NCBI GenBank assembly: GCA_016699365.1
Contig: CP064973.1
Coordinates: forward strand, 507,524 to 571,523
Source of the DNA: Candidatus Nomurabacteria bacterium
Lineage (GTDB): Bacteria > Patescibacteriota > Minisyncoccia > Phycocordibacterales > UBA9973
Direction: 5' to 3'
DNA: 64,000 nt
Part shown: positions 16,587-33,508 of the stretch, piece after piece
How positions within the stretch are numbered: the stretch's first letter is position 1
Layout of the letters: each line of letters starts with the position of its first letter
Program-made: the position numbers and the translations under genes
Notes under the pieces: model-generated
The model's input: only the letters and a program-made list of their open reading frames with translations
What the model was told of the DNA's origin: nothing
The model's database searches: none

Positions 16587-19139
16587 ATGTTTTTTCGTCG
16601 TAGAAGTAAGACGAGTCATATAAAAAATACATGGATAGAAGATGTCACGATTTCTGGTAAATCTAAGGTTCTTTCTCTGCGACCAACCTATTTTGTAATA
16701 AGAATTGATAAACAAAAAATACGCGAACTTTTCAGTAAGGATAAATATTTTATAGGTTATGGTTTGGTTGTATTGATGGTGCTAGCGGTTTCATCTCTAT
16801 CAAATCCTACAAAAGCTGATGTTGTAAATTTCTATCCCACAAGCTGTCTTGGTGGTTGGGAGAATCCTGAAAATGCAACAGGTGCTCCGAGTTTGGAGAA
16901 AGATGACAGTATAGAATCTTTCAATGACGAGAACTCAGCTCGTATGCGTGGCACATCAGATATATTCTGCGGTGGGTTTGAAGGAGAGATACCTCCAGAA
17001 GCAATCGCCAATTCTTTTTCTTTGAGTTTTAGAATTTCTGTCGACGATGGATCTGTTGAACATAGTAAGACAGAGATACTTGTTGTTCCAGAAACTGAAG
17101 ATGTCCGAGTTGGTACTGACAATATAGAAATAATAGAAATAGAAAATTCAAATGACGGGACTCAATCAACTGATTCTTTAGAAAGTGATGTTTTAGATAG
17201 TGGAGTAGATTCTACAGATACTGTTCAATCAGAAGAAGCTCCATCAGTTGCTCCAGAAGTTATTGAGCAAGTAATTGAAGTCGAAGCTCCGGCAGAAGAA
17301 TCTCCAGAGCCAGTAAGTTCACCGGAGCCAGAACCTAGTCCCGCAGAGCCTGCTGGTGAATCTGCATTTCTTAGATTCTTTACAAAGAGAGTGCATGCTG
17401 AAGGTGAAGATATATCAAGTGTGGAAACAGCAGAACCACAAATAGTTGAGGTGGTAGTAGATGAACCTGTTGTGATAGAAGAAATTCCAGAACCACAATC
17501 TGAAAACCTAGAGCAAGCAGATACTAGTTCTGGTGAAGTTATAAATATAGACAGATCTTCATCTGAAAACGGTGAAGCCGATTTGGATAGTACTCCAAAT
17601 GAAGATTCAGAAAATATTGCAGAGGTTATACCAAACGATGCAATATTGAAAATTGTTTATACATTGGATGGAGAAAAGTGGGTGTCACTCGGATATGTTT
17701 CTATGAGTTCTTGGAAAGATTTGAATTTTAGTCTGCCTCTGAAGGAATGGTCAGATGTAAATAGTTTTCAAATAAAATTGGAACAAGTTTCTAGTTTCGA
17801 TGAAAAGCCTGTTGTGTTTTTGGATTCAGTTATTCTTTCAGCTGAATACGACGGACTAGGAGAAGATCCTATAAGACAGCCAGATTTTGGTACAGATGTA
17901 ATCTTGTCTGATAAAACAATTGACGATATAAGAGTAATAAAGATTTTACGCAACGATATACCGATGATTTGGTATACAAAGATTCCACCAGCAGTAGAGC
18001 TTCCAGAAGGTGAGATAATAGAAGAACAGGGTGGTGTAGAAATTATAGTTGTAACAGAAGATGAAACTGAGGGGTCTCTCGATAACCCAGTAGAAGTAGA
18101 GGTTGTAGCTCCAGTAGAAGAGATAGTAGAACCAGAAGTAGTGGAAACAATAGAGGAGCCTGTTGTCGAAACTTTGCCAGTAGATCTGGCTCCGGAAAAT
18201 ACAGAAATAGTTCCATCAGAGAATACAGAAATTATTTCATTTGGTAGAAAAATCAAAAATCTTTTTGGTGTACTGCAAGTATATGCTGAAGGTGAAGATG
18301 GTGGTGGTGAATCTTCAGGAGGTAGTGGTGGCGAGAGTGGTGGCGGAGAAAGCTCTTCTAGCGGAGGAGATTCATCTTCTTCGGCAGAGAGTAGTTCAAG
18401 TACTTCAGAATCTTCTGCGGGTGACGAAGCTTCTTCAGCTAGTAGTACAAGCGACGGAAGTGAAGCTGGTTCTTCTGAGAATTCTATTTCTGATAGTACT
18501 GTAGACAATCCTGATTCATCAGAAAATTCTGTAGTATCAGAAGACAATTCTGAAACATTAAATTCAGATGCAATTATAGAAAATCAAGTAAATGATTCAA
18601 TAAACAAAGTTCTAGATGATATAAATATTGGTGAGAGTGGTAATATTATTATCGACACTATTCATAAATATGATAATAGTGATGTTAAAATCACAGAGGA
18701 TCTTATTTTGAGTACAACAGAAGCTATTGTCCCAGGACTTACTCCTATTTCATATACAGAAGAACAAATCATGAACGAGAGAGCTAGTGGAACAGAGTGG
18801 AATTTGGTTGCGTTGGGATCAAGCGTAGATGTTGCGACCACTGTCGACGTGAGTGGAGGTATAATCTTTTGGTTTGCTCCGGGCAATACTGCAATTTATC
18901 AATACAACACAGCTTCAGGGGGAATTTCTTCTGAAGGAATTAGTTCCACAGTTGATTCTGAGATAAAATATTTAGAACCAAACGGTGATATTTCAGAGAT
19001 ATCTGTAGACGCACAGAATTCCGAACTCATCACACCCAAAGAAGAAAAAGATACTTTAGAAATAGAGTCTATATCGAATTCAGAAAGCATAAAAGAAGAG
19101 GGTGTGGAAGATATTACGACAAAGGAAAAAATTGATTAA
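16587..19139 (+). CDS. large acidic low-complexity surface protein (850 aa) with N-terminal TM anchor
   Basis: A TM helix (GYGLVVLMVLAVSSL), then Glu/Ser/Pro/Val-rich tracts (PEPVSSPEPEPSPAEPAGE; GGGESSGGSGGESGGGESSSSGGDSSSSAESSSS). A ...AEGED motif preceded by a hydrophobic stretch occurs twice. Confidence 0.6.
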   Translation: MFFRRRSKTSHIKNTWIEDVTISGKSKVLSLRPTYFVIRIDKQKIRELFSKDKYFIGYGLVVLMVLAVSSLSNPTKADVVNFYPTSCLGGWENPENATGAPSLEKDDSIESFNDENSARMRGTSDIFCGGFEGEIPPEAIANSFSLSFRISVDDGSVEHSKTEILVVPETEDVRVGTDNIEIIEIENSNDGTQSTDSLESDVLDSGVDSTDTVQSEEAPSVAPEVIEQVIEVEAPAEESPEPVSSPEPEPSPAEPAGESAFLRFFTKRVHAEGEDISSVETAEPQIVEVVVDEPVVIEEIPEPQSENLEQADTSSGEVINIDRSSSENGEADLDSTPNEDSENIAEVIPNDAILKIVYTLDGEKWVSLGYVSMSSWKDLNFSLPLKEWSDVNSFQIKLEQVSSFDEKPVVFLDSVILSAEYDGLGEDPIRQPDFGTDVILSDKTIDDIRVIKILRNDIPMIWYTKIPPAVELPEGEIIEEQGGVEIIVVTEDETEGSLDNPVEVEVVAPVEEIVEPEVVETIEEPVVETLPVDLAPENTEIVPSENTEIISFGRKIKNLFGVLQVYAEGEDGGGESSGGSGGESGGGESSSSGGDSSSSAESSSSTSESSAGDEASSASSTSDGSEAGSSENSISDSTVDNPDSSENSVVSEDNSETLNSDAIIENQVNDSINKVLDDINIGESGNIIIDTIHKYDNSDVKITEDLILSTTEAIVPGLTPISYTEEQIMNERASGTEWNLVALGSSVDVATTVDVSGGIIFWFAPGNTAIYQYNTASGGISSEGISSTVDSEIKYLEPNGDISEISVDAQNSELITPKEEKDTLEIESISNSESIKEEGVEDITTKEKID

Positions 19140-19141
19140 AA

Positions 19142-22100
19142 ATGAAATTTTTATATCTTAAAACAAAAATAAATAAAATTTCAAATTTTTTTAATTTTAA
19201 AAAAGTTCTAACCATTTTTTTAATTGTGGCATTTTTATTTAGTGGTTTTACAGACATGGTTCTGATGCGTGTTTTAGACAAAAGATCAGAAGAGCCTGTT
19301 GTAAAAAATGCAGAAGCGGCCACCTATCAATTTTTCCCAACTGACGTAGTAGTCGAGACAGGCACTGAGCAAAATGTCACATCTGCGACTATTGCTGCAA
19401 CCGAAGGAACAAACTTAGGTTCTCATCAAGGAATGATGACAAACGATGGTTTCCATTGGCAAGTTGCTGGTGCAGGTGCATCTGGTATCTCTATGGTTGT
19501 TACCATAGGTGGAGTCGGGCTAAACGGTGCAAACAAACTCGATATCGGTACAGAGATAGATATGGATGCTACAGCGTACAGTATGCTTTTTCAGATATGC
19601 GACTTTACTTCAACAACCAACGTAGACAACGCAGCCGATGCAAACTGTACTGGAGGCGGGTGGCGTACAATAAACACTCAGAATGCATCAAACGCCGATG
19701 TAGCATATACGGATACTGCAAACGATCAGTTGCGATGGCAACTTTACAATGGTGTTTTTTCCAACGGAACATCTGATGCCGGTACACCTATCGATACACC
19801 ACTTACGTACTTCGTGAATGGAAGTAATGAAATGAAATTTCGGTACTACTCTACAACAAGCTCTACTTCTGTTGTATCTATAGACTATCTAACTGCATTT
19901 GCATATATAGACTCTGTGTACTATGCAGCAGACTATGTAGATCAGGTTTCTGGTGGAGGTACGGAGACAGGGGTGTATGTAAACTCTGTTCCGATAGTTA
20001 ACAACGCTACCGCATGGACTTCTGCAAGTACAAACGACAACAACCGTGTAGGAGTATCTGCAACTTCGCAGGTCGTAGACTTCTATTTGTCATATCAAAA
20101 TATCAAACAGTATACGGGGATGAATACCATACTCGTCGGTTCTTCGGTGAACTGTACTGGTGCAACAACTATCCGACAGTATTTGTACAACTTTACTGAT
20201 AGCGCATGGGATCAGATAGGTTCGGATGTTTCGTGTACGACATCGGACGTAGATAGATATTTTGCGCACAACTCGGCAGTTGATGGAGGATTTGTATTCA
20301 ATGACTACATATCAGCAGGTGAGATGCGCGTTCGATGGGCGTCGACTGCGTCTGTGACAAACGGTATTTTTGTTGACTGGCAATATGTAATGCTCGGTTC
20401 TGTAAATACAGATTCATCTCTGTGTGAGATATCTTTTGGTACAGGTACTGCAACAAACTGCACAAACACTCGAACTCTCAATACTCTTGCTGCAGCATCT
20501 ACTTTTGATATCGCAGGTGAAGACGAAGCTGCTGCTATGGGAACAGGAGAAGCAAATTCATTTTATCCAAACGATACCGATCAGGATACTACTGTTGAAG
20601 AGGGTGTATCTGCAAATATATCTGTACCGGTAACAGTTCCTGCCAATGCACAAGTGGTTGGTATAAACTGGTCTAGTCGTACGACTTCGCGCAGCACTGG
20701 AACTACGAGAGTTACAAATAGTTTGAGGGATTACTCAGGACTAACTTCTACTACTGGTGGATGGACGGATGTCGGAGCTGCAGTAAACGCAACAACACAG
20801 ACTTATCAAGACAATGTTATAACAGCAGCTGTTTTATCATATGGGCAACAAATAAATCCAGAGGACTATGTCGACACAGTGAACGGTCGTATGAATATGC
20901 GTCTACGTACGTCTACGTCAGGAGCGACAACGGACAACTCTACAACAGCATGGGATTTTGCAATGATGTCTATTCAATGGATAGAGGATTCTAGTAATCC
21001 TACAGTTACGTACCAGTTTACACCTACCGGACAAACTCTGGTTACAGGTACAGATACAACAGCAAATAATACTATTGCCGCGGGAGCAAACGGCGCAAAT
21101 ACTGGCTCATGGAAAGGTACACTTGCTGATGACAATCGTCACTGGGAGCTTACTGGAACAGCGAGTGGTATAGATGTAGAGCTTTTCATGAACGGGGTAA
21201 AGCTCAATGGGGCAAACACTATAATAGTACAGTCTGAAATAGACGTAGATGCTACAGCTCCGACATTGCTTGTACAGATATGTGATTGGGTTTCAACTAC
21301 AAGCGTAGACCATGCTGCAGATTCAAATTGTACAGGAGGAGGGTGGAGGACACTCAACTCTCGTGATGCGGTAATAACACCAACTACAGCAACTGCATAT
21401 ACATGGAACGTCTATGACGGTAAGTGGTCCAACGGATCCAATACTCCAGTTTCTACTCCACTTACGAACTTTGTTACAACCGACTCAAACAAGCGCGTTT
21501 TGGTCAGGTACTATTCAACAACAAACGCTACAACAGCCGGTAACTTCGCGATAGATTATTTGCGTATATATCCTGTGATTAATCCTGTCTATGAACCAGG
21601 TGACGCAACAGCACTTACAAACTCTTTTACTGGAGATTACACAAATGCAAATACAGTCACACAAGGAGGTGCAGACAATACGGACCTTCAGTGTCTCGGT
21701 ACAACCGGTGGGCCAGACTGTTATTTGTCATTTTTCAATGTCAAAACGTATCCGAGTATGAATACAATTCTTGCTCGTTCAGAGTTCGCGTGTACAGCAA
21801 CAACAGAAGCTCCTGAAATAAAAATGGCACTAAGGAATTTTACAACTGGTGCATGGGACGACATAACGACAGAAATACCAAACTGTTCAACAACGGACAC
21901 AGTACGTATCGGTGCCAAAAACAATATTACGGTCAGTGACTATGTTTCAAATGGTGAAGTGCGCTTGCGATATTATAGATCATCTGGAGCTGGTACTGGA
22001 GCAATCCAGATAGACTATTCATATATAATGCTTGGAACTACGAATTCGGATTCTGCTGGGGCCTATTGTTTCATATCATTTGGGACAAACTCAGCAAATG

Positions 22101-23149
22101 ATTGTACTGCAACTCGTACAATAGATATGAATGGTTCTACAAACAACGGTACGACATGGCAGATACTTGCAGAAGATGAGTCGACAAACAGAGGAGCAGG
22201 AGAGGCGAATGACTTCTATTCCTTTGATGTAGATATGAACGCGACAGCTTCTCAGGAGGGGTCGGCCTCGCATACCAAATTTAGCTTGAGTGGAGAGCCA
22301 GCGTACGGCGCTATAACAGGTATTTTCTTTTCATCTCAACATATGGCTGGTACAGCTGGTACTGTCGCCTTAAATATCGCAGACTATTCTGGATATAACA
22401 CAGCAGCAGTTGCTGCGGGAGGGTTCATTGCTCTCGGAGCGACTGCAACAACGGCACTTGTATATACAGACAACATAACCGTAGGTACAGCTATATCTGG
22501 AGGTGCAGCTGGTTATATGACAAACCCCGATGACTTGGTAAATACCTCAGGTGATGAAGGTTGGTTTAGGTTGCGTACATCGACAGACGGTAGTTCGGCG
22601 TCAAACGCAGTTCGGCAATGGGATTTTGCAATGATGTCTTTGCAGTGGGTGGAGACCGAAGATAGGACTATATCATTTGATATATCAGATACCACTATAG
22701 GATTTGGTCCACTTACAACATCGAATGCTCGCTATGCAACAGGGGATGCAGCTGGTAGCGATACTGAGGCTACAGCCCATACTCTCACAGCGTCTTCAAG
22801 TGCAGCTGGTGGATATACAATAACAGTAGAAGGTCCTACACTAACTAGTGCTGGCGGCACAATAGATGCAATTGGTAGTACGAATACCGCTTCGAGCGCA
22901 GGAACAGAACAGTTTGGAATCAAGGCTACAGTAGCAGGTATTTCATATTATGATGCCGTAGATGATACATATAGTGGTTCTGGTTATGGATACGACGGCA
23001 CTTCTGGTGCGTCAACATTTGCAACACAGTCACAAGGAGATGGATTTACTTCAACTTATTCAGTTGGTTATATTGCCAACATGTCCACAGGAACAGAAAC
23101 AGGTGCGTATTCTACAGATCTAAACTACATAATGACAGGGAACTTCTAA
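19142..23149 (+). CDS. giant Thr/Asn/Ser/Gly-rich surface protein (1335 aa) with N-terminal TM, two ~510-aa internal repeats and a C-terminal domain shared with the next two genes
   Basis: Repeat 1 (~19440-20990) and repeat 2 (~21130-22660) share ICDFTSTTNVDNAADANCTGGGWRTIN / ICDWVSTTSVDHAADSNCTGGGWRTLN and WDFAMMSIQW / WDFAMMSLQW. The C-terminus ...YIANMSTGTETGAYSTDLNYIMTGNF parallels the paralogs. Confidence 0.7.
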   Translation: MKFLYLKTKINKISNFFNFKKVLTIFLIVAFLFSGFTDMVLMRVLDKRSEEPVVKNAEAATYQFFPTDVVVETGTEQNVTSATIAATEGTNLGSHQGMMTNDGFHWQVAGAGASGISMVVTIGGVGLNGANKLDIGTEIDMDATAYSMLFQICDFTSTTNVDNAADANCTGGGWRTINTQNASNADVAYTDTANDQLRWQLYNGVFSNGTSDAGTPIDTPLTYFVNGSNEMKFRYYSTTSSTSVVSIDYLTAFAYIDSVYYAADYVDQVSGGGTETGVYVNSVPIVNNATAWTSASTNDNNRVGVSATSQVVDFYLSYQNIKQYTGMNTILVGSSVNCTGATTIRQYLYNFTDSAWDQIGSDVSCTTSDVDRYFAHNSAVDGGFVFNDYISAGEMRVRWASTASVTNGIFVDWQYVMLGSVNTDSSLCEISFGTGTATNCTNTRTLNTLAAASTFDIAGEDEAAAMGTGEANSFYPNDTDQDTTVEEGVSANISVPVTVPANAQVVGINWSSRTTSRSTGTTRVTNSLRDYSGLTSTTGGWTDVGAAVNATTQTYQDNVITAAVLSYGQQINPEDYVDTVNGRMNMRLRTSTSGATTDNSTTAWDFAMMSIQWIEDSSNPTVTYQFTPTGQTLVTGTDTTANNTIAAGANGANTGSWKGTLADDNRHWELTGTASGIDVELFMNGVKLNGANTIIVQSEIDVDATAPTLLVQICDWVSTTSVDHAADSNCTGGGWRTLNSRDAVITPTTATAYTWNVYDGKWSNGSNTPVSTPLTNFVTTDSNKRVLVRYYSTTNATTAGNFAIDYLRIYPVINPVYEPGDATALTNSFTGDYTNANTVTQGGADNTDLQCLGTTGGPDCYLSFFNVKTYPSMNTILARSEFACTATTEAPEIKMALRNFTTGAWDDITTEIPNCSTTDTVRIGAKNNITVSDYVSNGEVRLRYYRSSGAGTGAIQIDYSYIMLGTTNSDSAGAYCFISFGTNSANDCTATRTIDMNGSTNNGTTWQILAEDESTNRGAGEANDFYSFDVDMNATASQEGSASHTKFSLSGEPAYGAITGIFFSSQHMAGTAGTVALNIADYSGYNTAAVAAGGFIALGATATTALVYTDNITVGTAISGGAAGYMTNPDDLVNTSGDEGWFRLRTSTDGSSASNAVRQWDFAMMSLQWVETEDRTISFDISDTTIGFGPLTTSNARYATGDAAGSDTEATAHTLTASSSAAGGYTITVEGPTLTSAGGTIDAIGSTNTASSAGTEQFGIKATVAGISYYDAVDDTYSGSGYGYDGTSGASTFATQSQGDGFTSTYSVGYIANMSTGTETGAYSTDLNYIMTGNF

Positions 23150-23179
23150 TTTGTTTTTTTGCAAAATATTATTTTGGTA

Positions 23180-23188
23180 TGCTATAAT
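23180..23188 (+). promoter_or_regulatory. extended -10 element TGCTATAAT upstream of the 23216 paralog
   Basis: ggtatgctataatta lies 28 nt before the ATG. Confidence 0.45.
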
Positions 23189-23215
23189 TAAAGTAACTTT
23201 AGAGAACATACTTAT

Positions 23216-24313
23216 ATGATAAAAAAAATCACAAGTTCAATAATGATACTTTCTGTCATCACTGCAAACTTTGTGGGATTTAGTGATACAGCTTTTGCTG
23301 CAAGTGTAACAACTTTCTCTGATACACTTTCTACACTCACAGCCTCAACTGCGGCGAACCACGAAATACTTTTTATAACTCCAACTGGTGTAGAGGCCAA
23401 CAATGACACGATGATTTTTACTTTTACAGGCTTTGATGGTACATCACTAGACGCAATTGCATTTGGAGATGTAGATCTAGCAGAAAGTACAAATGCCAGC
23501 TGTTCAAACCCAGGTACATGGAACGAGAAAACACTTGCTGCCACAGACGCAGCTTCTACATATGGTGTAGCCACAAACTCCACAACACTTCTTTTTGATC
23601 CACCAACAACATCTGGATATATTACAGCTGGTAATTGTATAAGAATCAAAATCGGAACAAATGCTTCTACTGGTGTTGCTGGTACAAACCAGATTACAAA
23701 CGGAGGAGCTGCAACTGCACACTCAATTGCTATATCAGGAAACTTCGCTGACACAGGAACAGCATCTATAGATATTATTGCTGATGATTCTGTTAGCTTA
23801 AGTGCAACAGTTGATTCAGCTATATCTTTTACTGTAGATGATACAACTATAGGTTTTGGAACCTTGGATGCCGCCGCCGCTAGGTGGGCAACAGGTGATG
23901 CAACAGGAACATCTTCTTTGCCAGGAGATACATCAGGTGCACATCAAATGACACTTTCTACAAACGCAGCCTCTGGATATTCAATCACTTACAACGGAGC
24001 AACGCTCACAAGTGGTGCAAATACTATAGACGTAGCTACTATATCTGAAGATGATGATGGAACTCCTGCCTCAGAGCAGTTCGCGATCGGGCTAGACGAC
24101 AATGGTAGTAATGTAACAATAGTTTCAGACTATGATTTAGCTACTACAAACAGTTATAAGTTTGTTGCAGGTACTACTACAACAGTTGCGTCTGAAACTG
24201 CGCCTACTGCCACAGAGACATTTGATGTTCAGTATATTGCGAATATATCTACAGTGACAGAAGCAGGATCATACTCAACAAATGTTACTTGGATAGCAAC
24301 AGGTAACTTTTAG
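23216..24313 (+). CDS. secreted surface protein, paralog A (signal peptide, C-terminal shared domain ending ...TWIATGNF)
   Basis: Signal peptide MIKKITSSIMILSVITANFVGFSDTAFA. The last ~165 aa are near-identical to the 24407 product and homologous to the C-terminus of the giant protein. Confidence 0.7.
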   Translation: MIKKITSSIMILSVITANFVGFSDTAFAASVTTFSDTLSTLTASTAANHEILFITPTGVEANNDTMIFTFTGFDGTSLDAIAFGDVDLAESTNASCSNPGTWNEKTLAATDAASTYGVATNSTTLLFDPPTTSGYITAGNCIRIKIGTNASTGVAGTNQITNGGAATAHSIAISGNFADTGTASIDIIADDSVSLSATVDSAISFTVDDTTIGFGTLDAAAARWATGDATGTSSLPGDTSGAHQMTLSTNAASGYSITYNGATLTSGANTIDVATISEDDDGTPASEQFAIGLDDNGSNVTIVSDYDLATTNSYKFVAGTTTTVASETAPTATETFDVQYIANISTVTEAGSYSTNVTWIATGNF

Positions 24314-24406
24314 AACATGATATCCACAGTGTTGCTATGATATTTTTTGTGTGTTTATATGGTACAATTTTAAAATAGATTATTAAATTATTATCCAGAT
24401 TCAAAT

Positions 24407-25498
24407 ATGATAAAAAAATTTACAAGCTTCCTAGTAATATTCTCTGTAATCGCTACAAACTTTGTAGGATTTGCAGATAAGGCTCTCGCTGCAAGTGTAA
24501 CAACTTTCTCTGATACACTTTCAACACTACAAGCATCGACTGCTGCGAACCACACAATATACTTTGTAACTCCTACAGGAGTAGCCTCTGGAGGCACAGT
24601 CACTCTTACTTTCGATGCAGACTTTACCGGAGTATCTGCAATTGACGATACAGACTTGGACTTCGCAGAAGGTGACTCTGGTACTTGTACTTCAGCTTCA
24701 TATACAGAAGAAACTCTTGTTGCGTCTGGTGCAACTTCTTCACAGTTCAACGCTTCTGCTTCAGGTCAGGTTATTACTTTTGAATCTGGAGGTGCATCAG
24801 CAACAGTAACAGCAGCTCGATGTATTCGTATCAAGATTGGTACAAACGCAACTTCTGGAGTTACTGGTGCTGAGCAAATCTCAAACGGGGCTGCTGCAAA
24901 CGGACACTCAGTTACAATCGGAGGAACTTTTGGTGACTCAGGTACAGCAGCTATAGATATTATTGCTGATGATTCTGTTAACATAACTGCAACAGTTGAT
25001 CCTACTATTACTTTTACAATATCTGACACCACAGTAGGTTTTGGTACACTAACAACAGGCTCTGCTTCTTGGGCTACTGGAGATTTGGCAGGTGTAACAT
25101 CTGTTCCAGGAGATACATCAGGTGCACATGAAATGACAGTTGCTACAAACGCAGCTTCTGGATACTCAATCACTTACAACGGCGCAACACTTACAAGTGG
25201 TGCAAATACTATAGACGTAGCTACTATATCTGAAGATGATGATGGAACTCCTGCCTCAGAGCAGTTTGCTCTAGGAATAGATGACAACGGTGGAAACGTA
25301 ACTATAGTTTCTGATTACGACCTTGCGACTGCAAACAGTTATAAATTCGTCGCAGGTACTACTACAACAGTCGCATCTGAGACTGTTGCTACAGCAACAG
25401 AAACAATAGATGTGCAGTATATTGCCAATGTATCTGGAGTTACAGAAGCTGGTTCATATACAACTAACGTTACTTGGATAGCAACAGGTAACTTCTAA
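24407..25498 (+). CDS. secreted surface protein, paralog B
   Basis: Signal peptide MIKKFTSFLVIFSVIATNFVGFADKALA. It shares 74-nt and 35-nt identical stretches with paralog A. An extended -10 TGCTATGAT sits at ~24338-24346. Confidence 0.7.
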   Translation: MIKKFTSFLVIFSVIATNFVGFADKALAASVTTFSDTLSTLQASTAANHTIYFVTPTGVASGGTVTLTFDADFTGVSAIDDTDLDFAEGDSGTCTSASYTEETLVASGATSSQFNASASGQVITFESGGASATVTAARCIRIKIGTNATSGVTGAEQISNGAAANGHSVTIGGTFGDSGTAAIDIIADDSVNITATVDPTITFTISDTTVGFGTLTTGSASWATGDLAGVTSVPGDTSGAHEMTVATNAASGYSITYNGATLTSGANTIDVATISEDDDGTPASEQFALGIDDNGGNVTIVSDYDLATANSYKFVAGTTTTVASETVATATETIDVQYIANVSGVTEAGSYTTNVTWIATGNF

Positions 25499-25503
25499 AT
25501 CTT

Positions 25504-26544
25504 ATGCTTAAAAGAACATCAATAGTCACACTATTCGTCGCACTATCATTTGTTTCTTTTGGCTTCACTAAAAACGCTCAAGCGCTAACACTTACTCCTG
25601 TAAGAATAGAAGTTAGTGGTGATGCTGGTAGTACTGTAACAAGTGAGATTACGCTTATAAATGACAGAGATACAGAAGAAACATTCTACTCATCATATGC
25701 AAACTTTGAGGCTCAAGGTGAAACAGGAAGTCCAAACTTCGTAGACCCAACAGAAGGTCTTGGAACATGGATAAAGACAGATGAAGTAGTCGTATTAGGT
25801 CCTGGAACAAGTAAGATCATACCTGTCACAATAACAATACCTTCCAATACTGAACCAGGAGGATACTTTGCTGCTGTATTTTTTGGCACAAATAATCCAA
25901 ACCTTGGAGACGCAGGGAGTGTTTCTATAGGCGCAAAGACTGGAGTCCTAGTACTACTTCGAGTAAATGGTGAAGTAAACGAGCAAGGTGGAATACTAGA
26001 ATACGACACAAAAGATCACAAGAGATTTTTCACATCACTGCCTGTTGATTTTTATTACAGATTTCAAAATACAGGAGGAGATAGAGTTAAGCCAGAAGGA
26101 GATATAACAGTGAAGCATTTTCTAGGTTTTGTTCGAGCGAAAGTTCCAGCAAACCTAGTAGAAGGTAACGTTCTACCAAATCAAATAAGAAGATTTGAAG
26201 CTTCATGGCAGAGTAAGAACGGCAATAGTGTCGCAGTTGATGAGAATTTGAATTTTATTGAAAACGTAAAAAATCAATGGGTCAACTTTGCTTTTGGATA
26301 CTACAAAGCAAATATAAGTCTTGTGTATGGAGAAGGAGACAAGATAACAGAATCTTCTGTAGGAATATGGGTTTTTCCATGGCAACTTCTCATAACTATA
26401 CTAGTAGCCCTATTTATAATAAGATTTATTTGGAAGAAAATATCCATTCATCGCAGAAAAGAATTGATGTCTGAGATGCGCGAAGAGCTGATGAAAGAAA
26501 TGAATAGTAAAAATAGCACTGAAAAGACTCATATACAGTTTTAG
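25504..26544 (+). CDS. secreted protein with C-terminal TM anchor and short basic cytoplasmic tail (DUF916/DUF3324-like architecture, tentative)
   Basis: Signal peptide (cleavage near AQA-LT), a beta-rich ectodomain, then a TM (WQLLITILVALFIIRFIW) and KKISIHRRKEL... tail. Confidence 0.55.
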   Translation: MLKRTSIVTLFVALSFVSFGFTKNAQALTLTPVRIEVSGDAGSTVTSEITLINDRDTEETFYSSYANFEAQGETGSPNFVDPTEGLGTWIKTDEVVVLGPGTSKIIPVTITIPSNTEPGGYFAAVFFGTNNPNLGDAGSVSIGAKTGVLVLLRVNGEVNEQGGILEYDTKDHKRFFTSLPVDFYYRFQNTGGDRVKPEGDITVKHFLGFVRAKVPANLVEGNVLPNQIRRFEASWQSKNGNSVAVDENLNFIENVKNQWVNFAFGYYKANISLVYGEGDKITESSVGIWVFPWQLLITILVALFIIRFIWKKISIHRRKELMSEMREELMKEMNSKNSTEKTHIQF

Positions 26545-26559
26545 TATAGGTAAAGGCCG

Positions 26560-27459
26560 ATGTCTTTATTCAATAAAAACAAAAAGCATATTGTAGGCAT
26601 ATTTTTGCTTGGTATGCTTTTTGTTTTTTCTGCTGAAGTATCCAGTGCTGTTGATTTGAGTATATCTGCGCAGGTTGGTGCAGGGGGCGGTGGAGATGTT
26701 GGCGGGGGCGGAGGAGGTGGGGGTGGTGGAGGCGCAAATGATGGGGACTCCACTGTAAACTTTTCTGGATATGCATATCCACTGTCTCAGGTTATAGTAC
26801 TCCGTGACGGTATAGAGGTTGTACAGACTATTGCTGGTCCTGATGCAAAATTTAGTATAAGTATCTCAGATCTCCCAGAAGGTAACTATACTTTTTCTGT
26901 TCTAGCTGAAGATTATCAAGAAAGAAGATCCACTCTTTTTACATTTCCACTATATCTTACTGATGGATTGACTACTACTATATCCGGAATCTTTATTGCT
27001 CCATCTATTGCAATAGATAAAAGCGTAGTAAAGCAAGGAGAACAGATTACAATATTTGGACAATCTACTCCAAATTCTGAAGTTTCTATTAGTGTGAATT
27101 CGTTGAATGAGTTTATATTGAATACTTTTACTGATAGTAGTGGTATCTATCTATCTGTTTTTAATACAAGCTTACTTGAAATAGGTGATCATACTACACG
27201 ATCATATTCAAAGTACTTAGAAGCCACTTCTTCATATTCTAGTACACTTGCTTTTGAAGTTTCAGACAAAGCTGGGGAGGTTTTGGTGTGTGGTACAAAA
27301 GCCGATGTAAGTTCTGATTGTAGAGTAAACCTAGTGGATTTTTCCATGTTGGCTTATTGGTTTGAGAGAGGAACTCCACCTGTGGCGTTTGATTTATCTG
27401 GAGACGGCAAAATTACTTTGATTGATTTTTCTATAATGGCTTATTATTGGACTGGCTAA
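26560..27459 (+). CDS. secreted Gly-rich protein with C-terminal tandem dockerin-like repeats
   Basis: Signal peptide, a poly-Gly tract (GAGGGGDVGGGGGGGGGGGANDGD), and a C-terminus DVSSDCRVNLVDFSMLAYWFE ... DLSGDGKITLIDFSIMAYYWTG, which is two D-x-[SN]-x-D-G-x-[VI]-x-x-x-D-F-x-x-[LM] segments. Confidence 0.6.
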   Translation: MSLFNKNKKHIVGIFLLGMLFVFSAEVSSAVDLSISAQVGAGGGGDVGGGGGGGGGGGANDGDSTVNFSGYAYPLSQVIVLRDGIEVVQTIAGPDAKFSISISDLPEGNYTFSVLAEDYQERRSTLFTFPLYLTDGLTTTISGIFIAPSIAIDKSVVKQGEQITIFGQSTPNSEVSISVNSLNEFILNTFTDSSGIYLSVFNTSLLEIGDHTTRSYSKYLEATSSYSSTLAFEVSDKAGEVLVCGTKADVSSDCRVNLVDFSMLAYWFERGTPPVAFDLSGDGKITLIDFSIMAYYWTG

Positions 27460-27464
27460 AAAAC

Positions 27465-28364
27465 ATGAGAAACAATTATTTTAAAATACTTTTTATATTC
27501 ACCTTGCTTGTATTCACTAACAATATGATATTTGCTAGTGGCTCTGATGTCGTATTCAAATATCCAGAAAATACAACAAAGACAAGTAGTCCATTTTCCT
27601 TGAGTGTCTTATTGGATACATCCGGAGATGATATCAATGCTATTGAAGGCACTCTGTATTATGATGATAATTTTTTTGAACTAGTAGATATTGTTGATGG
27701 TAATAGTGTAGTTACTTCTTGGGTGAAAAAACCAGTAGAAGAAGGAGGGAAAATAACTTTTTCGGGGATCATGGCAGGTGGGTATCTTGGAACAATTGAG
27801 CCGTTGACCAACAATATCGGTCCAGGTGTCTTGTTTGAATTGGTATTATTGCCAAAGATAGAAGGATCTGGGTCTATTACACTTACAGATACAATTGTAT
27901 ATAAAAATGATGGACTAGGTACTTCAAAAAGTATTGCTACAAAAGACATATCAATAGAATCTAACATAAATGGATTTTCAGATTATATCCAAAATGTAGA
28001 CAATATAAGACCATTGGTTTTTTCTCCTATAATTTCAAAAAATCCGGATATGTTTGAGAATAGATATTTTATTGTATTTGATACACAAGATAAAGAATCT
28101 GGTATAGATCATTTTGAAGTAAGAGAAGGTAGGAGAGATTGGGTATTGGCAGAGAGTCCGTATGTCCTACAAGATCAGACATTGAAGAGTCATATACGTG
28201 TTAAGGCAGTAGATAAGGCTGGTAACGAGCGTGTAGTTAACTATGAAGACAGAATAGATTTTCCTATTTCAATTCTTTCTATACCGATTATTATTATCTT
28301 AATCATAATCATTTCTGTATACTTTTGGTACACTAGAAAAATACGTATTTTAAGTGTAAAATAA
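27465..28364 (+). CDS. membrane-anchored protein with cohesin-like beta-sandwich module and C-terminal TM
   Basis: Start at ATG 27465 (MRNNYFKILFIFTLLVFTNNMIFA; the track start 27447 is TTG). Cohesin-like pattern FSLSVLLDTSGDDINAIEGTLYYDDNFFELVDIVDG...GKITFSG...LFELVLLPKIEGSGSITL. C-terminal TM ILSIPIIIILIIIISVYFW. Confidence 0.5.
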   Translation: MRNNYFKILFIFTLLVFTNNMIFASGSDVVFKYPENTTKTSSPFSLSVLLDTSGDDINAIEGTLYYDDNFFELVDIVDGNSVVTSWVKKPVEEGGKITFSGIMAGGYLGTIEPLTNNIGPGVLFELVLLPKIEGSGSITLTDTIVYKNDGLGTSKSIATKDISIESNINGFSDYIQNVDNIRPLVFSPIISKNPDMFENRYFIVFDTQDKESGIDHFEVREGRRDWVLAESPYVLQDQTLKSHIRVKAVDKAGNERVVNYEDRIDFPISILSIPIIIILIIIISVYFWYTRKIRILSVK

Positions 28365-28369
28365 AATAC

Positions 28370-30121
28370 ATGACTCTTCCTTCGTTTAACATAAGAATTT
28401 TTTCTGTAACACTTTTTTTGTGTATATTTTTTATTGTTCCAAAAAATACAAATGCTGCTTCATTTCAAATATCTCCAACTACAGGCAATGTATCAAATTC
28501 AGGATCAATAACTCTCACGGTTAGTCTTGCGACTAGCTCATCTGTTCCAGTAAATGCTTTTTCAGGTAGGTTGAATTTTCCTACAGAATTAGTTTCGAAT
28601 ACAAATATATCTGTTAGTGGTTCAATCGCAAATTTTTGGACAGTGCAACCCTCAGTCTCTTCAGATGGTGTAATAAGATTTGAAGGTATTGTTTTAAATC
28701 CAGGTTTTAGTGGATCTAGTGGTAAGTTGTTTACAGCTACATTCAAGACAGAAGGTACAGGCACAGCAAACTTTAACCTTACTAGTGCGTCTATATTGGC
28801 AAACGATGGACTTGGTACAAATGTTTTGACTGCTACTTTACCTACATCTGTATTTACAATTGGAAACGCAGCCCCAGTGGCCACTACTCCTGCTACGACT
28901 AGCTCCACTCCGATTGCTCCGGAGATAATGTCTTCGTCACACCCAAATCCAAATGGCTGGCATAAAGAGACTGTAGCTGATCTTTATTGGGATCTTCCAG
29001 AAGATGCCAATGGAGTGTCATTTGTTTTAGATAAAAATCCTGGAACCATACCAGCAAAAGTTTCAAAGGGCTTAGTAAGTTCATATAAGTCTGAACCTCT
29101 AGAAGATGGTGTGTGGTACATGCATGTCATGATAAAGAATTCTGTCGGATGGGGAAGCGTTGCTCATTATAGAGTAGGCGTTGATACAGTTGCACCAGAA
29201 TCTGTGAGTATAACTCACGTCCACGAGGAAATTCCTATGGGCACTAGCAAGTTTGATATATCAGCCGAAGATATAACTTCAGGGATTGCTTACTATGAGA
29301 TAAGTTTTGATGCGGGAGATACGGAAATATTTAAAAAATATTCAGAAACTGATTTGTTTGAATCAAAAATCTTGCCACCAAAAAGATATCTTGTGGTTGT
29401 AAATGCATATGACTTTGCTGGAAATACAACTCCAGCCATTATGTATTTTACTGCAATGCCTGTGAATCAGCCGGTGATTACAGAGTACTCAAAAGAATTA
29501 AATAGTGGAGAATATTTAACTCTTTCGGGTACTGGATATGAAAATCAAAACGTAAGAGTTCGTTTTGAAAAAAGTAAAACATCTTTCTTTTATAAAATAT
29601 TTGCCCACACAAGAAGCGCTGCATTAAATGAAGAAGTAACAAAAGTAGACAAGGATGGGAAGTTCTCTTTTAGAAATGACGAATCTTGGAACGCTGGAAT
29701 ATATTATGTAACAGTTCGAAACGAACTATCCAACGGAGCTTTCAGTGAATACACAACTCCTGTTCAAATAACAGTAGAGAGTGGTGCTTTTGTTAGATTC
29801 ATAGAATCCTCTCTAAGATTCTTGATACCTGTCATTCCTTTCTTGCTTGCAATCATACTTATACTTTTTGCAGGATTGTTTATTTTAAGATTTTTCAAAA
29901 AATACAGAAGAATCCTGTCTAAACAAGTAAGAGAAGCTGAGGGTGTGGCCGATGAATCTATGAGATTGATTGACAGTGAAGTCTTGGATGAGATAAATCT
30001 GCTCAAAAAAGTACGCTCAGGTGAACCTCTATCAGAAAGAGAGCAGGCTTTCCTAACTAAACTTCGAGGGGATTTGGGTGTTGCAAATTCTATAATTCAA
30101 AAAGAAATAAAAGATATATAA
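28370..30121 (+). CDS. large surface protein with N-terminal cohesin-like module, Ig/FN3-like middle, and C-terminal TM plus cytoplasmic tail
   Basis: Signal peptide, cohesin-like segment (GSITLTVSLATSSSVPVNAFSGRLNFPTELVSNTNI...GVIRFEGIVLNPGFSGSSGKLFTATFKTEGTGTANFNL), a TM (FLIPVIPFLLAIILILFAGLFIL), then a charged tail. Confidence 0.5.
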   Translation: MTLPSFNIRIFSVTLFLCIFFIVPKNTNAASFQISPTTGNVSNSGSITLTVSLATSSSVPVNAFSGRLNFPTELVSNTNISVSGSIANFWTVQPSVSSDGVIRFEGIVLNPGFSGSSGKLFTATFKTEGTGTANFNLTSASILANDGLGTNVLTATLPTSVFTIGNAAPVATTPATTSSTPIAPEIMSSSHPNPNGWHKETVADLYWDLPEDANGVSFVLDKNPGTIPAKVSKGLVSSYKSEPLEDGVWYMHVMIKNSVGWGSVAHYRVGVDTVAPESVSITHVHEEIPMGTSKFDISAEDITSGIAYYEISFDAGDTEIFKKYSETDLFESKILPPKRYLVVVNAYDFAGNTTPAIMYFTAMPVNQPVITEYSKELNSGEYLTLSGTGYENQNVRVRFEKSKTSFFYKIFAHTRSAALNEEVTKVDKDGKFSFRNDESWNAGIYYVTVRNELSNGAFSEYTTPVQITVESGAFVRFIESSLRFLIPVIPFLLAIILILFAGLFILRFFKKYRRILSKQVREAEGVADESMRLIDSEVLDEINLLKKVRSGEPLSEREQAFLTKLRGDLGVANSIIQKEIKDI

Positions 30122-30144
30122 AAGAAAATATAATATCTTATAAT

Positions 30145-30981
30145 ATGAATTTTAAAAAAATATTCCTAATCACAATAATACTGTTTTCTTTTTCTAGTCC
30201 AGTGCTGGCCATAGAATCAAATAATACTGGCTTTATATCAGAAAGTGTTTGGTTTTCCGAAGAAGATTTAATCTTGGGGGAAAGTGTAAATATATATACA
30301 GCTTTGTTCAACAATTCCTCTTCTGTACTTGAGGGAAGTGTTACCTTTTTTGACAAAGATGTAGTATTAGGAGTTAAGACTTTTTCTATACCTGAAAAAT
30401 CTGTCAGGGATGTAAAACAATCTTGGATTGTAACATCAGGAGATCATGAGTTGTATGCGAGTCTAAGTATTAAAAAAACTGACATAGAGCTTGGTGAAAA
30501 AATTACAGAACCACTTAAATTCACAATCCAAGCCCCTGTTATTGCAGAAAAAGATTTGGTAGCTGATGAAACCAAAGAATTGCTATCTGATGTAGATAAT
30601 CTACAAGACAAAATAATAGAAAGTATTCCGCCTTCTGTGTCAGAAAAAATATCCGATTCTTTTTCAGGAGTAGAGATTTTTAGAACTGAAACTTCTAGTA
30701 ATATAGAAGCAAAAAAAGACCAGAAACAAGAAATTGTTGATGAGCTTAAGGCCCAGCCAACAAAGGATTCTGTGGATTTGGAAGTTGGTCTTGAAGATGG
30801 AAAGACAAATATTGATATAAAATCAACACCTCTGGATACTCCACTTGCATATGCCGGGTTGTTTTTCTATACAATAGTTAGCTATATATTCAAATCTACA
30901 GTCCTATTTTATGGTTTATGTATAGTTGTAATTTTCTTGATTTTACGTGCTATTTATAGGGCTATACGTAAACGTCCTTAA
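30145..30981 (+). CDS. secreted protein with CARDB/Ig-like N-terminal domain and C-terminal TM anchor
   Basis: Signal peptide MNFKKIFLITIILFSFSSPVLA; CARDB-like pattern (GESVNIYTALFNNSSSVLEGSVTFFDKDVVLGVKTFSIPEKSVRDV...GDHELYASL); C-terminal TM. Confidence 0.45.
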   Translation: MNFKKIFLITIILFSFSSPVLAIESNNTGFISESVWFSEEDLILGESVNIYTALFNNSSSVLEGSVTFFDKDVVLGVKTFSIPEKSVRDVKQSWIVTSGDHELYASLSIKKTDIELGEKITEPLKFTIQAPVIAEKDLVADETKELLSDVDNLQDKIIESIPPSVSEKISDSFSGVEIFRTETSSNIEAKKDQKQEIVDELKAQPTKDSVDLEVGLEDGKTNIDIKSTPLDTPLAYAGLFFYTIVSYIFKSTVLFYGLCIVVIFLILRAIYRAIRKRP

Positions 30982-31042
30982 TACTATAAAAAACGATTTT
31001 TGTAAGACTCGACAGCTACGAAACTCGTGATATACTCATTAT

Positions 31043-31303
31043 ATGCCAAGGCCACTTTTTATAGCCCTAATATTCGCAAGTGTGCTGTTTGCGCCTTGGT
31101 GGTTGTCATTACTCTTGATCTTGAGTGGTATAATTTTTTTAGACTTTGCACTAGAATCCATAATCGCAGCTTTTGTGATTGATATGCTTTACGGAGTTCA
31201 GTTGTCTAGGGCTATAGATGGACCTTTTGTAATTACGCTTATTGCACTTATATTATTTTTTGCTAAAAGAATTTTGAAACCTTATATTTTTATAAACAAA
31301 TGA
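31043..31303 (+). CDS. small 3-TM membrane protein (86 aa), possibly MreD-like, directly upstream of PBP2
   Basis: Hydrophobic ORF overlapping the PBP2 start by 4 nt (ATGA). The MreD-like call is positional inference only. Confidence 0.35.
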   Translation: MPRPLFIALIFASVLFAPWWLSLLLILSGIIFLDFALESIIAAFVIDMLYGVQLSRAIDGPFVITLIALILFFAKRILKPYIFINK

Positions 31304-32985: not shown

Positions 32986-33000
32986 TCTATTTTTTGATTG

Positions 33001-33026: not shown

Positions 33027-33031
33027 CCCTC

Positions 33032-33502: not shown

Positions 33503-33508
33503 TTTTTT

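Follow-up and report, generated by a model that had tools for sequence, protein, structure and literature searches.

What do ten consecutive plus-strand genes, whose products match no enzyme family in Pfam and NCBIfam profile searches, build at the surface of a Candidatus Nomurabacteria bacterium? The genes (P1 to P10, Table 1) occupy positions 16587-31303 of the window, the 64,000-nucleotide stretch of DNA that we analysed, with neighbouring ORFs overlapping by up to 13 nt or lying up to 93 nt apart, and all their products are secreted or membrane-anchored. A hydrophobicity heuristic detects a hydrophobic N-terminal segment in 10 of the 10 proteins and a further C-terminal TM helix in P5, P7, P8 and P9, with helices also present in the AF2 models of P5 and P3. 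A first-pass annotation had read the locus as a surface-assembly operon of a reduced-genome bacterium with the layout of the Firmicute Csc/WxL clusters; its ten ORFs on the plus strand, their secreted or membrane-bound products and the lack of enzymes all hold, as does surface assembly in a CPR bacterium. The co-directional run spans about 14259-38770 and exceeds the ten genes; hence, strand alone cannot delimit an island. The higher coding GC which that annotation noted is real in P2-P4 and confined to them (0.41-0.43 versus 0.32-0.39). However, the excess lies at codon position 2 (0.51-0.56) and not at position 3 (0.21-0.32, the same as in the flanks), and thus reflects the amino-acid composition of Thr/Ala/Gly/Ser-rich proteins rather than foreign DNA.

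Table 1. Positions in the window of the ten genes and of the domains and motifs discussed in the text.
Feature	Position	Strand	Basis
P1, accessory, 850 aa	16587..19139	+	topology, rarity in related loci
P2, candidate tip adhesin, 1335 aa	19142..23149	+	NF058581, internal repeat, absence of linker
P2 module A, residues 61-615	19322..20986	+	internal repeat; contains Cys
P2 module B, residues 623-1171	21008..22654	+	paralog of module A
P2 C-terminal pilin (acceptor) domain, residues 1166-1335	22637..23149	+	NF058581 and likeness to P3
P3, shaft pilin, 365 aa	23216..24313	+	NF058581, 82.3 bits
P3 linker, putative donor strand A-DDSVSLSATVD-S	23780..23818	+	conservation; coil in monomer model
P4, second shaft pilin, 363 aa	24407..25498	+	NF058581, 75.2 bits; P3 paralog
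P4 linker, putative donor strand DDSVNITATVD	24968..25000	+	motif conservation
P5, proposed membrane-anchored chaperone of PapD/WxLIP type, 346 aa	25504..26544	+	predicted fold, topology
P5 loop, candidate complementing strand G-x-V-x-I-G-A-K-T-G	25888..25944	+	low pLDDT, near-invariant
P6, secreted adaptor or terminator candidate, 299 aa	26560..27459	+	domains, motif, topology
P6 mature N-terminal motif V-D-L-S-I-S-A-Q-V-G	26650..26679	+	same register as pilin linker
P6 dockerin, residues 248-294	27301..27441	+	PF00404, 24.3 bits (cut-off 22.9)
P7, cohesin-like anchored protein, 305 aa	27447..28364	+	cohesin profile, TM helix
P8, P7 paralog, 583 aa	28370..30121	+	hhalign, cohesin in relatives, topology
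P9, 278 aa	30145..30981	+	signal peptide and C-terminal TM helix
P10, small polytopic membrane protein, 86 aa	31043..31303	+	stop overlaps PBP2 start

A scan for relatives yielded 262 confirmed matches and roughly 80 species-level relatives, with the source-named homologues coming from Patescibacteria, Nomurabacteria or Paceibacterota. About 64-76 of the 80 species-level loci preserve the order P2-P3/P4-P5-P6-P7-P8: pilins are found in the same order and strand as here in 76, P6 in 73, P7 in 69 and P8 in 64. The 80 loci belong to different species and were all gathered via relatives of P5 with identities of 41% or more, so that some of this synteny may reflect shared ancestry; the co-occurrence of P2-P8 is far beyond chance. 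Synteny does not extend to the whole island, as P1, P9 and P10 are not part of the core. A P1 homologue lies upstream in only 15 of the 80 loci, and we regard this protein as an accessory whose role is uncertain. In P1, a single TM helix (residues 53-74) separates an N-terminal tail in the cytoplasm from a long extracellular part that is acidic and rich in Ser; no Pfam or NCBIfam family matches it significantly. P9, found in only six loci and always with PBP2 downstream, probably lies outside the conserved system; the earlier description of it as CARDB-like is not supported, since neither CARDB nor any other significant Pfam or NCBIfam family is matched. P10 (two loci, both with PBP2) probably belongs with the downstream cell-wall genes and not with the core.

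The C-terminal ~170 residues are common to P3, P4 (67% identical to each other) and the end of P2 (40-41% identity, E 1e-21 to 1e-23), finishing in ...TGNF, just as the first-pass annotation had described for its two ~365-aa paralogs and giant protein. All three copies pass the NCBIfam model NF058581, "CPR Pam pilus pilin C domain", at its curated cut-off of 55 bits, with P2 matching at 55.5 bits over residues 1198-1335. Judged by these profile matches, the shared domain is a CPR Pam pilin C domain and not a WxL domain. Pam pili have been described in Ca. Mycosynbacter amalyticus as CPR-specific, usher-less filaments formed by donor-strand exchange, for which a structure has been solved (Troman et al., bioRxiv 10.64898/2026.03.03.709456). 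In that system, the PamA and PamB pilins comprise an N-terminal sandwich, a linker and a C-terminal domain, with the linker (the donor strand) and the C-terminal groove being the most conserved parts. PamC and PamD are PapD/FimC-like chaperones with a C-terminal TM anchor, PamT is a tip subunit having an acceptor domain without a linker, and PamR is an RbmA-like terminator and anchor that starts with a strand and brings its own TM helix at the C-terminus. The published operon is without dockerin or cohesin genes like P6-P8, and the system was reported mainly in Saccharimonadia and Microgenomatia, with no mention of Paceibacteria (bioRxiv 10.64898/2026.03.03.709456).

P3 has the architecture of such a pilin: after the signal peptide come a beta-sandwich at about residues 30-185 and, joined to it by a linker, the C-terminal pilin domain (203-365). 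Its AF2 model (pLDDT 90.5) shows about 10 strands for residues 30-185, then coil for 186-202 and further strands for 203-363, and structure searches with the pilin returned generic Ig-like matches only. A sequence search recovered 798 homologues, every source-named one of which is from Patescibacteria; a conserved Cys pair (C96/C141) is also present. Across 59 pilin sequences the most conserved features are the linker and the C-terminal Phe: D191 is kept in 57, V193 in 58, [VI]195 in 57, A197 in 54 and V199 in all 59, while the final residue is Phe in 58.

In P2, a signal or anchor segment and two tandem ~555-aa modules precede the pilin domain, which shares 41% identity with the P3 copy. The modules are 38.6% identical to each other over 577 columns (E 7e-120), in line with the giant repeat protein originally noted, and module A belongs to no known family, with neither a Pfam nor a PDB sequence match. 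The donor-linker motif is absent directly upstream of the C-terminal domain both in P2 and in 14 of 14 giant homologues, three of which have one chance match elsewhere. These features make P2 a candidate tip adhesin, which would offer an acceptor domain without donating a strand. On profile evidence it does not qualify as a PamT equivalog: the PamT model NF058579 does not match P2, and P3 reaches only 34.8 bits against a cut-off of 240.

In the AF2 model of P5, two beta-sandwich domains lie between the signal peptide and a TM helix at the C-terminus, and the best two-domain structural match is the WxL-interacting protein (WxLIP) of Enterococcus faecium. We propose that P5 is a membrane-anchored chaperone with a PapD-like fold. 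The candidate complementing strand is a loop at the end of domain 1, which has a pLDDT of 62 for residues 131-140 and is strongly conserved among 53 relatives (G143 in 53, A144 in 48, K145 in 50, V140 in 47 and I142 in 45). R34, at about position 7 of the mature protein, is retained in 49 of the 53; together with K145 it recalls the invariant Arg8 and Lys112 of PapD, which hold the subunit C-terminus. Neither P5 nor its relatives match the NCBIfam Pam models, and its equivalence to PamC/PamD is suggested by predicted fold and architecture only.

The next three genes encode what might be an anchor. P6 begins with a signal peptide and a donor-strand-like motif; a linker rich in Gly then leads to Ig domains (Big_6) and, at the C-terminus, a dockerin. 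Neither P6 nor any of 66 relatives has a C-terminal TM helix. In its N-terminal motif, A37, V39 and [IVL]35 are kept in 66 of 66 sequences and [VIL]33 in 65. A regular expression for the motif matches 43 of the 66 P6 N-termini and 52 of the 59 pilin linkers versus 182 matches in 871,000 residues of six-frame ORFs, among which the motif is essentially confined to the pilins and P6. When the pilin linker is modelled as a 21-column HMM, few P6 proteins are picked up (7 with scores of 4 bits or more), and the likeness is hence limited to a 7-residue core. The dockerin, as the first-pass annotation had recognised, is detected by PF00404 in P6 itself and in 63 of 66 relatives (best E 2e-7), and the P6 family profile matches solved dockerins (2y3n_B, E 1.2e-5). 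Translation of P7 probably starts at the ATG at 27465. Its signal peptide is followed by a cohesin-like domain spanning residues 40-167, then by an Ig-like domain and, towards the C-terminus, by a TM helix (268-299) that is found in 64 of 64 relatives. P8 is organised comparably: the signal peptide and the cohesin-like domain (about residues 30-165) precede Ig-like (Big_13) domains, a TM helix (477-512) and some 70 residues of cytoplasmic tail, and the two families are paralogous (hhalign probability 100%, E 1.6e-46). The cohesin assignment, likewise anticipated, has its evidence at the level of the families: PF00963 scores 20.5 bits with P7, under its cut-off of 24.1, and does not match P8, while it is found in 14 of 64 P7 relatives (best E 2.7e-8) and 13 of 52 P8 relatives (best E 1.1e-9). 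The P7 family profile also matches the solved cohesin 5aoz_A (E 5.5e-4), with only about 55 residues aligned.

We consider P2-P8 (19142-30121) to be an operon for a Pam-type pilus, with a probability of about 0.85. From these components, we infer a likely scheme of strand exchange, subunit order, termination by P6 and dockerin-cohesin contact. All the parts would be exported by Sec. P5, held at the membrane through its C-terminal helix, would cap the open groove of each pilin C-terminal domain with a strand from the flexible loop V-x-I-G-A-K-T-G. P2, with an acceptor domain and no donor linker, would initiate the filament and display its two large adhesin modules at the tip. P3 and P4 would then polymerise as the linker of each incoming subunit, DDSV-x-[VI]-T-A-T-V-D, displaces the chaperone strand in the previous one. 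P6, with an N-terminal V-x-[IV]-[ST]-A-x-V as in the pilin linker and no acceptor domain, would terminate the filament, and its dockerin might insert into a cohesin-like domain at the membrane, on P7, P8 or both, and so hold the pilus on the cell. Such a two-piece anchor would stand in for PamR, which has no RbmA-like counterpart, with both an N-terminal strand and a membrane helix at its C-terminus, among the ten proteins. The explanation as a whole, strand exchange and anchor included, appears probable, while for the anchoring step by P6/P7/P8 in itself we see an even chance.

The parallels to the M. amalyticus system, drawn via the NCBIfam model and the published description, comprise the family of the pilin C-terminal domain, two-domain pilins with a conserved linker and several paralogs per operon, a linkerless tip subunit, a PapD-like chaperone on a C-terminal membrane helix, the lack of an usher and a CPR host. 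However, the present locus comes from a Paceibacteria/Nomurabacteria-like lineage, its 1335-aa tip protein has two large modules in place of the single-domain PamT, it has one chaperone gene instead of two, and it encodes the secreted dockerin protein P6 and two cohesin-like membrane proteins where the published operon has the RbmA-like PamR with its TM helix. It also lies among cell-wall and division genes, with no ATP synthase seen among the ORFs scanned. The chaperone-usher pili (Pap/Fim/Csu/CFA-I) likewise have an incomplete Ig-like pilin domain, a tip that joins an adhesin module to a pilin domain, a donor strand with alternating hydrophobic residues and conserved basic residues placed like R8 and K112 of PapD. 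In contrast to these, there is no usher here (no family match in the island in Pfam or NCBIfam, with all large proteins accounted for), no outer membrane and no shared sequence family, the chaperone is membrane-tethered, and the donor strand is an inter-domain linker rather than an N-terminal extension. A simple pattern search for the features of sortase-assembled pili gave no LPXTG-like motif in the ten proteins and no TLxTC sortase signature in the window's ORFs.

The resemblance to the Csc/WxL systems of Lactobacillales and Bacillales deserves closer scrutiny, as P2-P4 could alternatively be bound to the wall via their shared domain and held by P5 as a CscA/WxLIP, forming a platform and not a filament. 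The gene layout is identical to that of WxL clusters, in which large and small proteins share a C-terminal domain of 160-190 aa and are accompanied by a 337-365-aa TM protein with two Ig-like domains (PMC10599100); the protein sizes agree, and P5 has the same architecture of signal peptide, two Ig-like domains and TM helix in about 340-365 aa. In these clusters, WxLIP is predicted to contribute one of its strands to the WxL sandwich and so complete it, which is the logic of chaperone complementation. Moreover, PF06030 (DUF916), which does not match the window's P5 (cut-off 27.3 bits), is detected in 44 of 53 relatives at E<=10 (best 3.9e-6), always sub-threshold; when ten relatives were taken individually, nine scored 15-21 bits in a constant register, though generic Ig families (fn3_5) score alike. 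Yet, a WxL identity of the shared domain was rejected: PF13731 matches neither P2-P4 nor any of 59 family members at E<=10, the WxL tripeptide is absent from the C-terminal domains of P2-P4, and the Pam pilin model is passed instead. DUF3324 (PF11797) is not among the families matched by any of the 53 P5 relatives, there is no LPXTG partner of the CscD kind, the small proteins carry an extra N-terminal domain and a conserved linker as in solved Pam filaments, and the host is a CPR bacterium. WxL proteins are regarded as platforms bound to peptidoglycan, whereas the Pam identity of the core implies a filament, and not merely a non-covalent wall complex as first proposed. Thus, the Csc/WxL analogy survives in layout and possibly in a deep homology of the chaperones, but not in family membership, and a wall-bound Csc/WxL-type complex is decidedly improbable.

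The other questions concern P6-P8. These might form a separate surface module for adhesion or matrix binding that merely adjoins the pilus genes and anchors no filament: both strand donation by P6 and the dockerin-cohesin contact are inferred, genes of this kind are absent from the published Pam operon, and the linker HMM scores P6 weakly. Against this, P5, P6, P7 and P8 follow one another in this order, separated by tiny gaps, in 64-73 of the 80 loci even as P7 identities fall to 22-30%, the invariant N-terminal motif of P6 matches the donor motif of the pilins, and the operon otherwise encodes no anchor or terminator; we regard an independent module as unlikely. The presence of dockerin and cohesin-like domains could also evoke a cellulosome-like scaffold for polysaccharide-degrading enzymes. 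As in cohesin-dockerin anchoring elsewhere, a dockerin with two Ca-loop repeats sits at the C-terminus of the secreted protein, with cohesin-like domains on cell-anchored partners encoded next door. However, the island has no glycoside hydrolase or other enzyme, the single dockerin protein carries Ig domains only, a pilus base would be the cargo, the anchor is a TM helix and not SLH domains or sortase, and the cohesin scores of the window's own proteins are sub-threshold. Cohesin-dockerin pairs outside cellulosomes are well known, and a cellulosome-like scaffold seems hardly credible here.

The Pam-type pilus therefore remains our preferred reading, and the combination that had seemed without precedent is, in its core, a known kind of system (bioRxiv 10.64898/2026.03.03.709456). 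What is new is the variant with its putative dockerin-cohesin anchor, undescribed in the literature that could be searched, in which we also found no account of a cohesin-dockerin pair as a pilus plug. That literature also treats CPR Pam and Firmicute WxL systems separately, while the structural and weak sequence link between P5 and WxLIP offers a route to connecting the surface systems of CPR bacteria and Firmicutes. The Pam chaperone and the Firmicute WxLIP (CscA, DUF916) are possibly homologous, and the joint reading, of Paceibacteria-type Pam pili plugged by cohesin-dockerin together with this homology, is advanced tentatively. Were the homology true, Csc/WxL clusters and CPR Pam pili would derive from one strand-complementation system of the monoderm envelope, and WxL proteins may likewise assemble by donor-strand complementation.

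Pam pili are thought to mediate the first contact of ultrasmall CPR bacteria with their hosts, and have so far been known from one cultured Saccharimonadia species. The locus and its roughly 80 relatives point to a conserved version in Paceibacteria/Nomurabacteria-like genomes, and provide a concrete parts list for an uncultured lineage: a giant two-module tip, a proposed terminator and a putative cohesin-dockerin anchor. Of these, the tip protein P2 is a candidate host-recognition factor.

The genes P1-P10 form an uninterrupted series on the plus strand, in which neighbouring ORFs are spaced from a 13-nt overlap to a 93-nt gap. All ten products bear an N-terminal hydrophobic segment, P5, P7, P8 and P9 additionally possess a C-terminal transmembrane (TM) helix, and Pfam and NCBIfam scans recovered no enzyme family in any of the ten. 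The ORFs, hydrophobic segments and family scans thus confirm the first-pass annotation in its picture of a tightly packed run of secreted or anchored non-enzymatic proteins. The flanks hold housekeeping genes. Since the co-directional run reaches far past P1-P10, the unit has to be delimited by content. We read it, with a probability of about 0.85, as a pilus operon of the Pam type, described from Candidatus Mycosynbacter amalyticus.

Features of the operon and its surroundings (window coordinates unless a locus is named), with the number of related loci carrying each component
Feature	Coordinates	Strand	Loci	Remarks
Upstream flank				DNA polymerase III subunit, beta-lactamase-fold protein, ABC ATPase, Ham1, CAAX protease-like protein, VTT protein
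P1-P10	16587-31303	+		ten confirmed ORFs
P1	16587-19139	+	15/80	
Long antisense ORFs in P1 region (example)	17768-18547			
P2-type C-terminal domain		+	60/80	
Promoter-like site	23159-23188			in the 66-nt gap immediately upstream of P3
Pilins (P3/P4)		+	76/80	
P6		+	73/80	
P7		+	69/80	
P8		+	64/80	
P9		+	6/80	
P10	31043-31303	+	2/80	86-aa membrane protein; overlaps PBP2 start by 4 nt (region with PBP2, 31043-32985)
Cell-wall/division cluster	31300-49787			directly downstream of the operon: PBP2, MraW, FtsI-like PBP, FtsZ (minus strand), Mur ligase
Downstream flank				PBP2, GreA, LysS, MraW, second PBP; further on FtsZ, Mur ligase
ORF joining P5- and P6-like parts	L034:9989-11902			single ORF, 637 aa

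While no Pfam family matched P2-P4, the NCBIfam model NF058581 (CPR_Pam_pilin_C, Pam pilus system pilin subunit; curated cut-off 55 bits) recovered P3, P4 and the last 140 residues of P2 with 82.3, 75.2 and 55.5 bits, respectively. In the Pam filament, resolved by cryo-EM from the Saccharimonadia parasite Ca. M. amalyticus, the linker between the two pilin domains of each subunit occupies the next subunit's groove (2026 preprint, 10.64898/2026.03.03.709456). The Pam operon also codes for PamE, for PamT, a tip subunit lacking the linker, for PamC and PamD, chaperones that resemble PapD/FimC and end in a TM helix, and for PamR, an RbmA-like membrane anchor with an N-terminal strand; the system is without an usher (10.64898/2026.03.03.709456). 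Modelling P3 with AF2 from 59 homologues (pLDDT 90.5) gives a signal helix followed by a sandwich of roughly 10 strands (residues 30-185), then a coil (186-202) and another beta domain (203-363). No stretch of the family is more conserved than the coil, D-D-[SQ]-V-x-[VI]-[TS]-A-T-V-D-P (V193 in 58/59, A197 in 54/59 and V199 in 59/59 proteins); the N-terminal domain has two near-invariant cysteines, and 58 of the 59 proteins end in Phe (T-[GA]-x-F-COOH). Fold, linker conservation, terminal Phe and cysteine pair all agree with the published description of Pam. PDB sequence searches with P2, P3, P5 and the pilin and P5 family profiles returned nothing useful from a PDB copy without the Pam structures 25PZ and 25QA.

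We surveyed related loci with a P5 profile over one genome per species, keeping 80 loci from 262 confirmed matches and locating the components by tblastn (Table). The core order [P2]-pilin(s)-P5-P6-P7-P8 on one strand is nearly constant, even where P7 identities fall to 22-30%, and many loci missing a component stop at contig ends. Hence, the synteny expected of the island holds for P2-P8 in most loci but not for P1, P9 and P10, which are mostly absent. P9 and P10 are present only where PBP2 follows, and we reject both as parts of the system on co-occurrence; the CARDB assignment offered for P9 likewise found no Pfam support. P10, which matches no family, accompanies PBP2 in the two closest relatives, L001 and L002, and might work with the elongation machinery as a partner resembling MreD. 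P1 contains two near-repeats in which a hydrophobic segment is followed by AEGED, FLRFFTKRVHAEGED and LFGVLQVYAEGED, each of which runs into acidic low-complexity sequence rich in Ser and Gly, a composition that seems to generate the region's long antisense ORFs as by-products. ATP synthase is reported in the neighbourhood of Saccharimonadia pam operons, whereas none was seen among the part of the window's ORFs that was scanned.

The rise in coding GC remarked on in the first-pass annotation is real but confined to P2-P4, and the argument drawn from it fails. It lies at codon position 2 (0.51-0.56), with GC3 (0.21-0.32) equal to that of the flanks, and the proteins contain 15-18% Thr and 10-14% Ala; we therefore regard it as a composition effect with no sign of imported DNA, and reject horizontal transfer as its source. 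Promoter and terminator counts were at chance level. The sole TG-extended promoter-like site inside the operon with 10/12 matches precedes P3, the first shaft pilin gene; it may represent a separate promoter for the major pilin.

P5 is best read as a tethered chaperone of the PamC/PamD type, a likeness resting on its modelled fold and architecture, as neither P5 nor its 53 relatives matched the NCBIfam Pam models, the chaperone model included. Its AF2 model (pLDDT 87) comprises a signal helix, two sandwich domains and a long C-terminal helix, and matched E. faecium WxLIP1 (9i1y_A; 12.5, 188), CfaA (11.7, 169), SafB (11.5, 162), CsuC (11.3, 176), FimC (11.3, 162) and PapD (10.0, 149). This suits the earlier suggestion of an anchor protein resembling WxLIP, the WxL-interacting protein (CscA) of Firmicutes, as does the C-terminal TM helix in 50/53 relatives. 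A low-confidence loop at the end of domain 1 (129-144) carries the near-invariant motif G-x-V-x-I-G-A-K-T-G, sharing its V-x-I-x-A alternation with the pilin linker. In PapD, Arg8 and Lys112 bind the C-terminal carboxylate of the subunit; P5 R34, about the seventh mature residue (49/53), and K145 (50/53) would be their counterparts by position. Fold, loop, basic pair and TM helix together lead us to the chaperone reading. In L034, one of the related loci, an ORF opens like P5 (LSLTPTRFELRGDPGE...) and continues into P6; this is a genuine fusion of chaperone and adaptor, or else an artefact of assembly or of a frameshift.

The locus had been likened to the Csc/WxL systems of Firmicutes, and the resemblance in gene layout holds. 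Membership in that class fails: the WxL family PF13731, proposed for the shared C-terminal domain, has no match in P2-P4 or 59 relatives even at E<=10, the domain matching NF058581 instead; the C-terminal domains of P2-P4 contain no Trp-x-Leu motifs; none of the ten is an LPXTG protein; and DUF3324, also proposed, matched neither P5 nor its relatives. The predicted insertion of a WxLIP strand into WxL would amount to complementation of the chaperone type under another name. WxL and DUF916 both go unmentioned in the Pam preprint (10.64898/2026.03.03.709456), and full-text literature searching for a tie between WxL proteins and donor strands brought up a single, unrelated review. With this shared logic, and the literature silent on the link, deep kinship between the Pam and Csc/WxL systems stays a live possibility; the locus hints at a possible shared ancestry of the Pam chaperones and Firmicute WxLIP.

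P2 opens with a signal or anchor segment. Next come two modules in tandem, each about 555 aa long and 38.6% identical to the other (E 7e-120), for which Pfam and a PDB sequence search gave no known family, and then a pilin C-terminal domain sharing 41% identity with its equivalent in P3. In ordinary pilins the linker motif lies 19 residues ahead of a conserved IGFG; immediately upstream of the C-terminal domain it is absent from P2 and from 14/14 giant homologues (646-2642 aa) in related loci. As a subunit able to accept but not donate a strand fits only the distal end, we read P2 as a candidate tip adhesin, analogous to PapG/FimH and, as tip subunit, to PamT, yet not a PamT equivalog. In six loci (L039, L049, L050, L036, L055 and L059) a second class of short proteins, of about 317-337 aa, lies upstream of the pilins, combining a pilin C-terminal domain with a Cys-containing N-terminal part (..NCTGYDTT...KVCA..) and lacking the linker motif; where no giant P2 is encoded, such proteins may serve as small tip subunits.

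The dockerin predicted in P6 stands at 24.3 bits against a Pfam cut-off of 22.9 (Dockerin_1), and recurs in 63/66 relatives, and Big_6 Ig domains are present in 58/66; the family profile also matches solved dockerins (2y3n_B at E 1.2e-5). P6 has a signal peptide, with a TM helix in 0/66 relatives. The two anchored proteins foreseen as cohesin-like, P7 and P8, are paralogs (hhalign probability 100%, E 1.6e-46). In both, a signal peptide precedes a cohesin-like domain at the N-terminus, followed by an Ig-like domain and by a TM helix that 64/64 P7 relatives retain. Here the sequence evidence is at the family level: P7 itself scores 20.5 bits, below the cut-off of 24.1, with cohesin matches in 14 of 64 relatives of P7 (E 2.7e-8 at best) and in 13 of 52 relatives of P8 (E 1.1e-9 at best), and the P7 family profile matching solved cohesins over its first ~55 residues (E 5.5e-4).

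The main rival to a role in anchoring is that P6-P8 constitute a separate surface module merely adjoining the pilus genes. Cohesin and dockerin go unmentioned in the Pam preprint (10.64898/2026.03.03.709456), and a full-text literature search found no paper linking them to CPR pili. The mature N-terminus of P6 reads [VIL]-[ST]-[IV]-[ST]-A-x-V-G, ahead of a Gly-rich linker, with Ala37 and Val39 invariant in 66/66 proteins, a conservation equal to that of the dockerin calcium ligands. A core of seven residues, V-x-[IVL]-[STG]-A-x-V, is common to 43/66 P6 N-termini and 52/59 pilin linkers; these two sites account for most of the 182 occurrences counted across the six-frame ORFs of the window and the 80 loci, 871,000 residues in all. 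A 21-column pilin linker HMM recovers pilins well and just 7 P6 proteins at >=4 bits; this poor transfer confines the similarity to the core, where enrichment is clear. In P6 homologues of L007, L009, L010, L063 and L077 a Cys-rich insert (GCGD..I..GE.CDG..LGG.SC...C..C.FN.S.C) directly after the N-terminal motif replaces the Gly-rich linker; the donor-like strand and the Ig domains would there be separated by another kind of spacer. We give the anchoring step an even chance.

Under the pilus reading, Sec would export all parts and the loop strand of P5 would cap the pilin groove. P2 would nucleate the filament as its tip, and P3 and P4 would polymerise through linker exchange. P6 would complete the last pilin by donating its N-terminal strand and, because it is without an acceptor domain, terminate growth; its dockerin would then bind the cohesin-like domain of P7 and/or P8, holding the filament on the membrane, so that this pair would take the place of PamR.

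Pam pilins have been reported mainly from Saccharimonadia and Microgenomatia, with Paceibacteria not mentioned (10.64898/2026.03.03.709456). Records of the 80 loci are named Nomurabacteria, Paceibacterota, Paceibacteria or Patescibacteria. Labels conflict among the closest contigs (L001, L004 and many others), with titles such as 'uncultured Candidatus Saccharibacteria' and, in the case of L004, 'uncultured Pseudomonadales'. Curated MAGs that carry this operon bear the names Nomurabacteria or Paceibacterota. The automatic labels are probably in error, a point to be heeded in any class-level survey of Pam distribution. As to the novelty claimed for this combination, the core system is already known as Pam; what is new here is the proposed cohesin-dockerin anchor and the giant tip protein.
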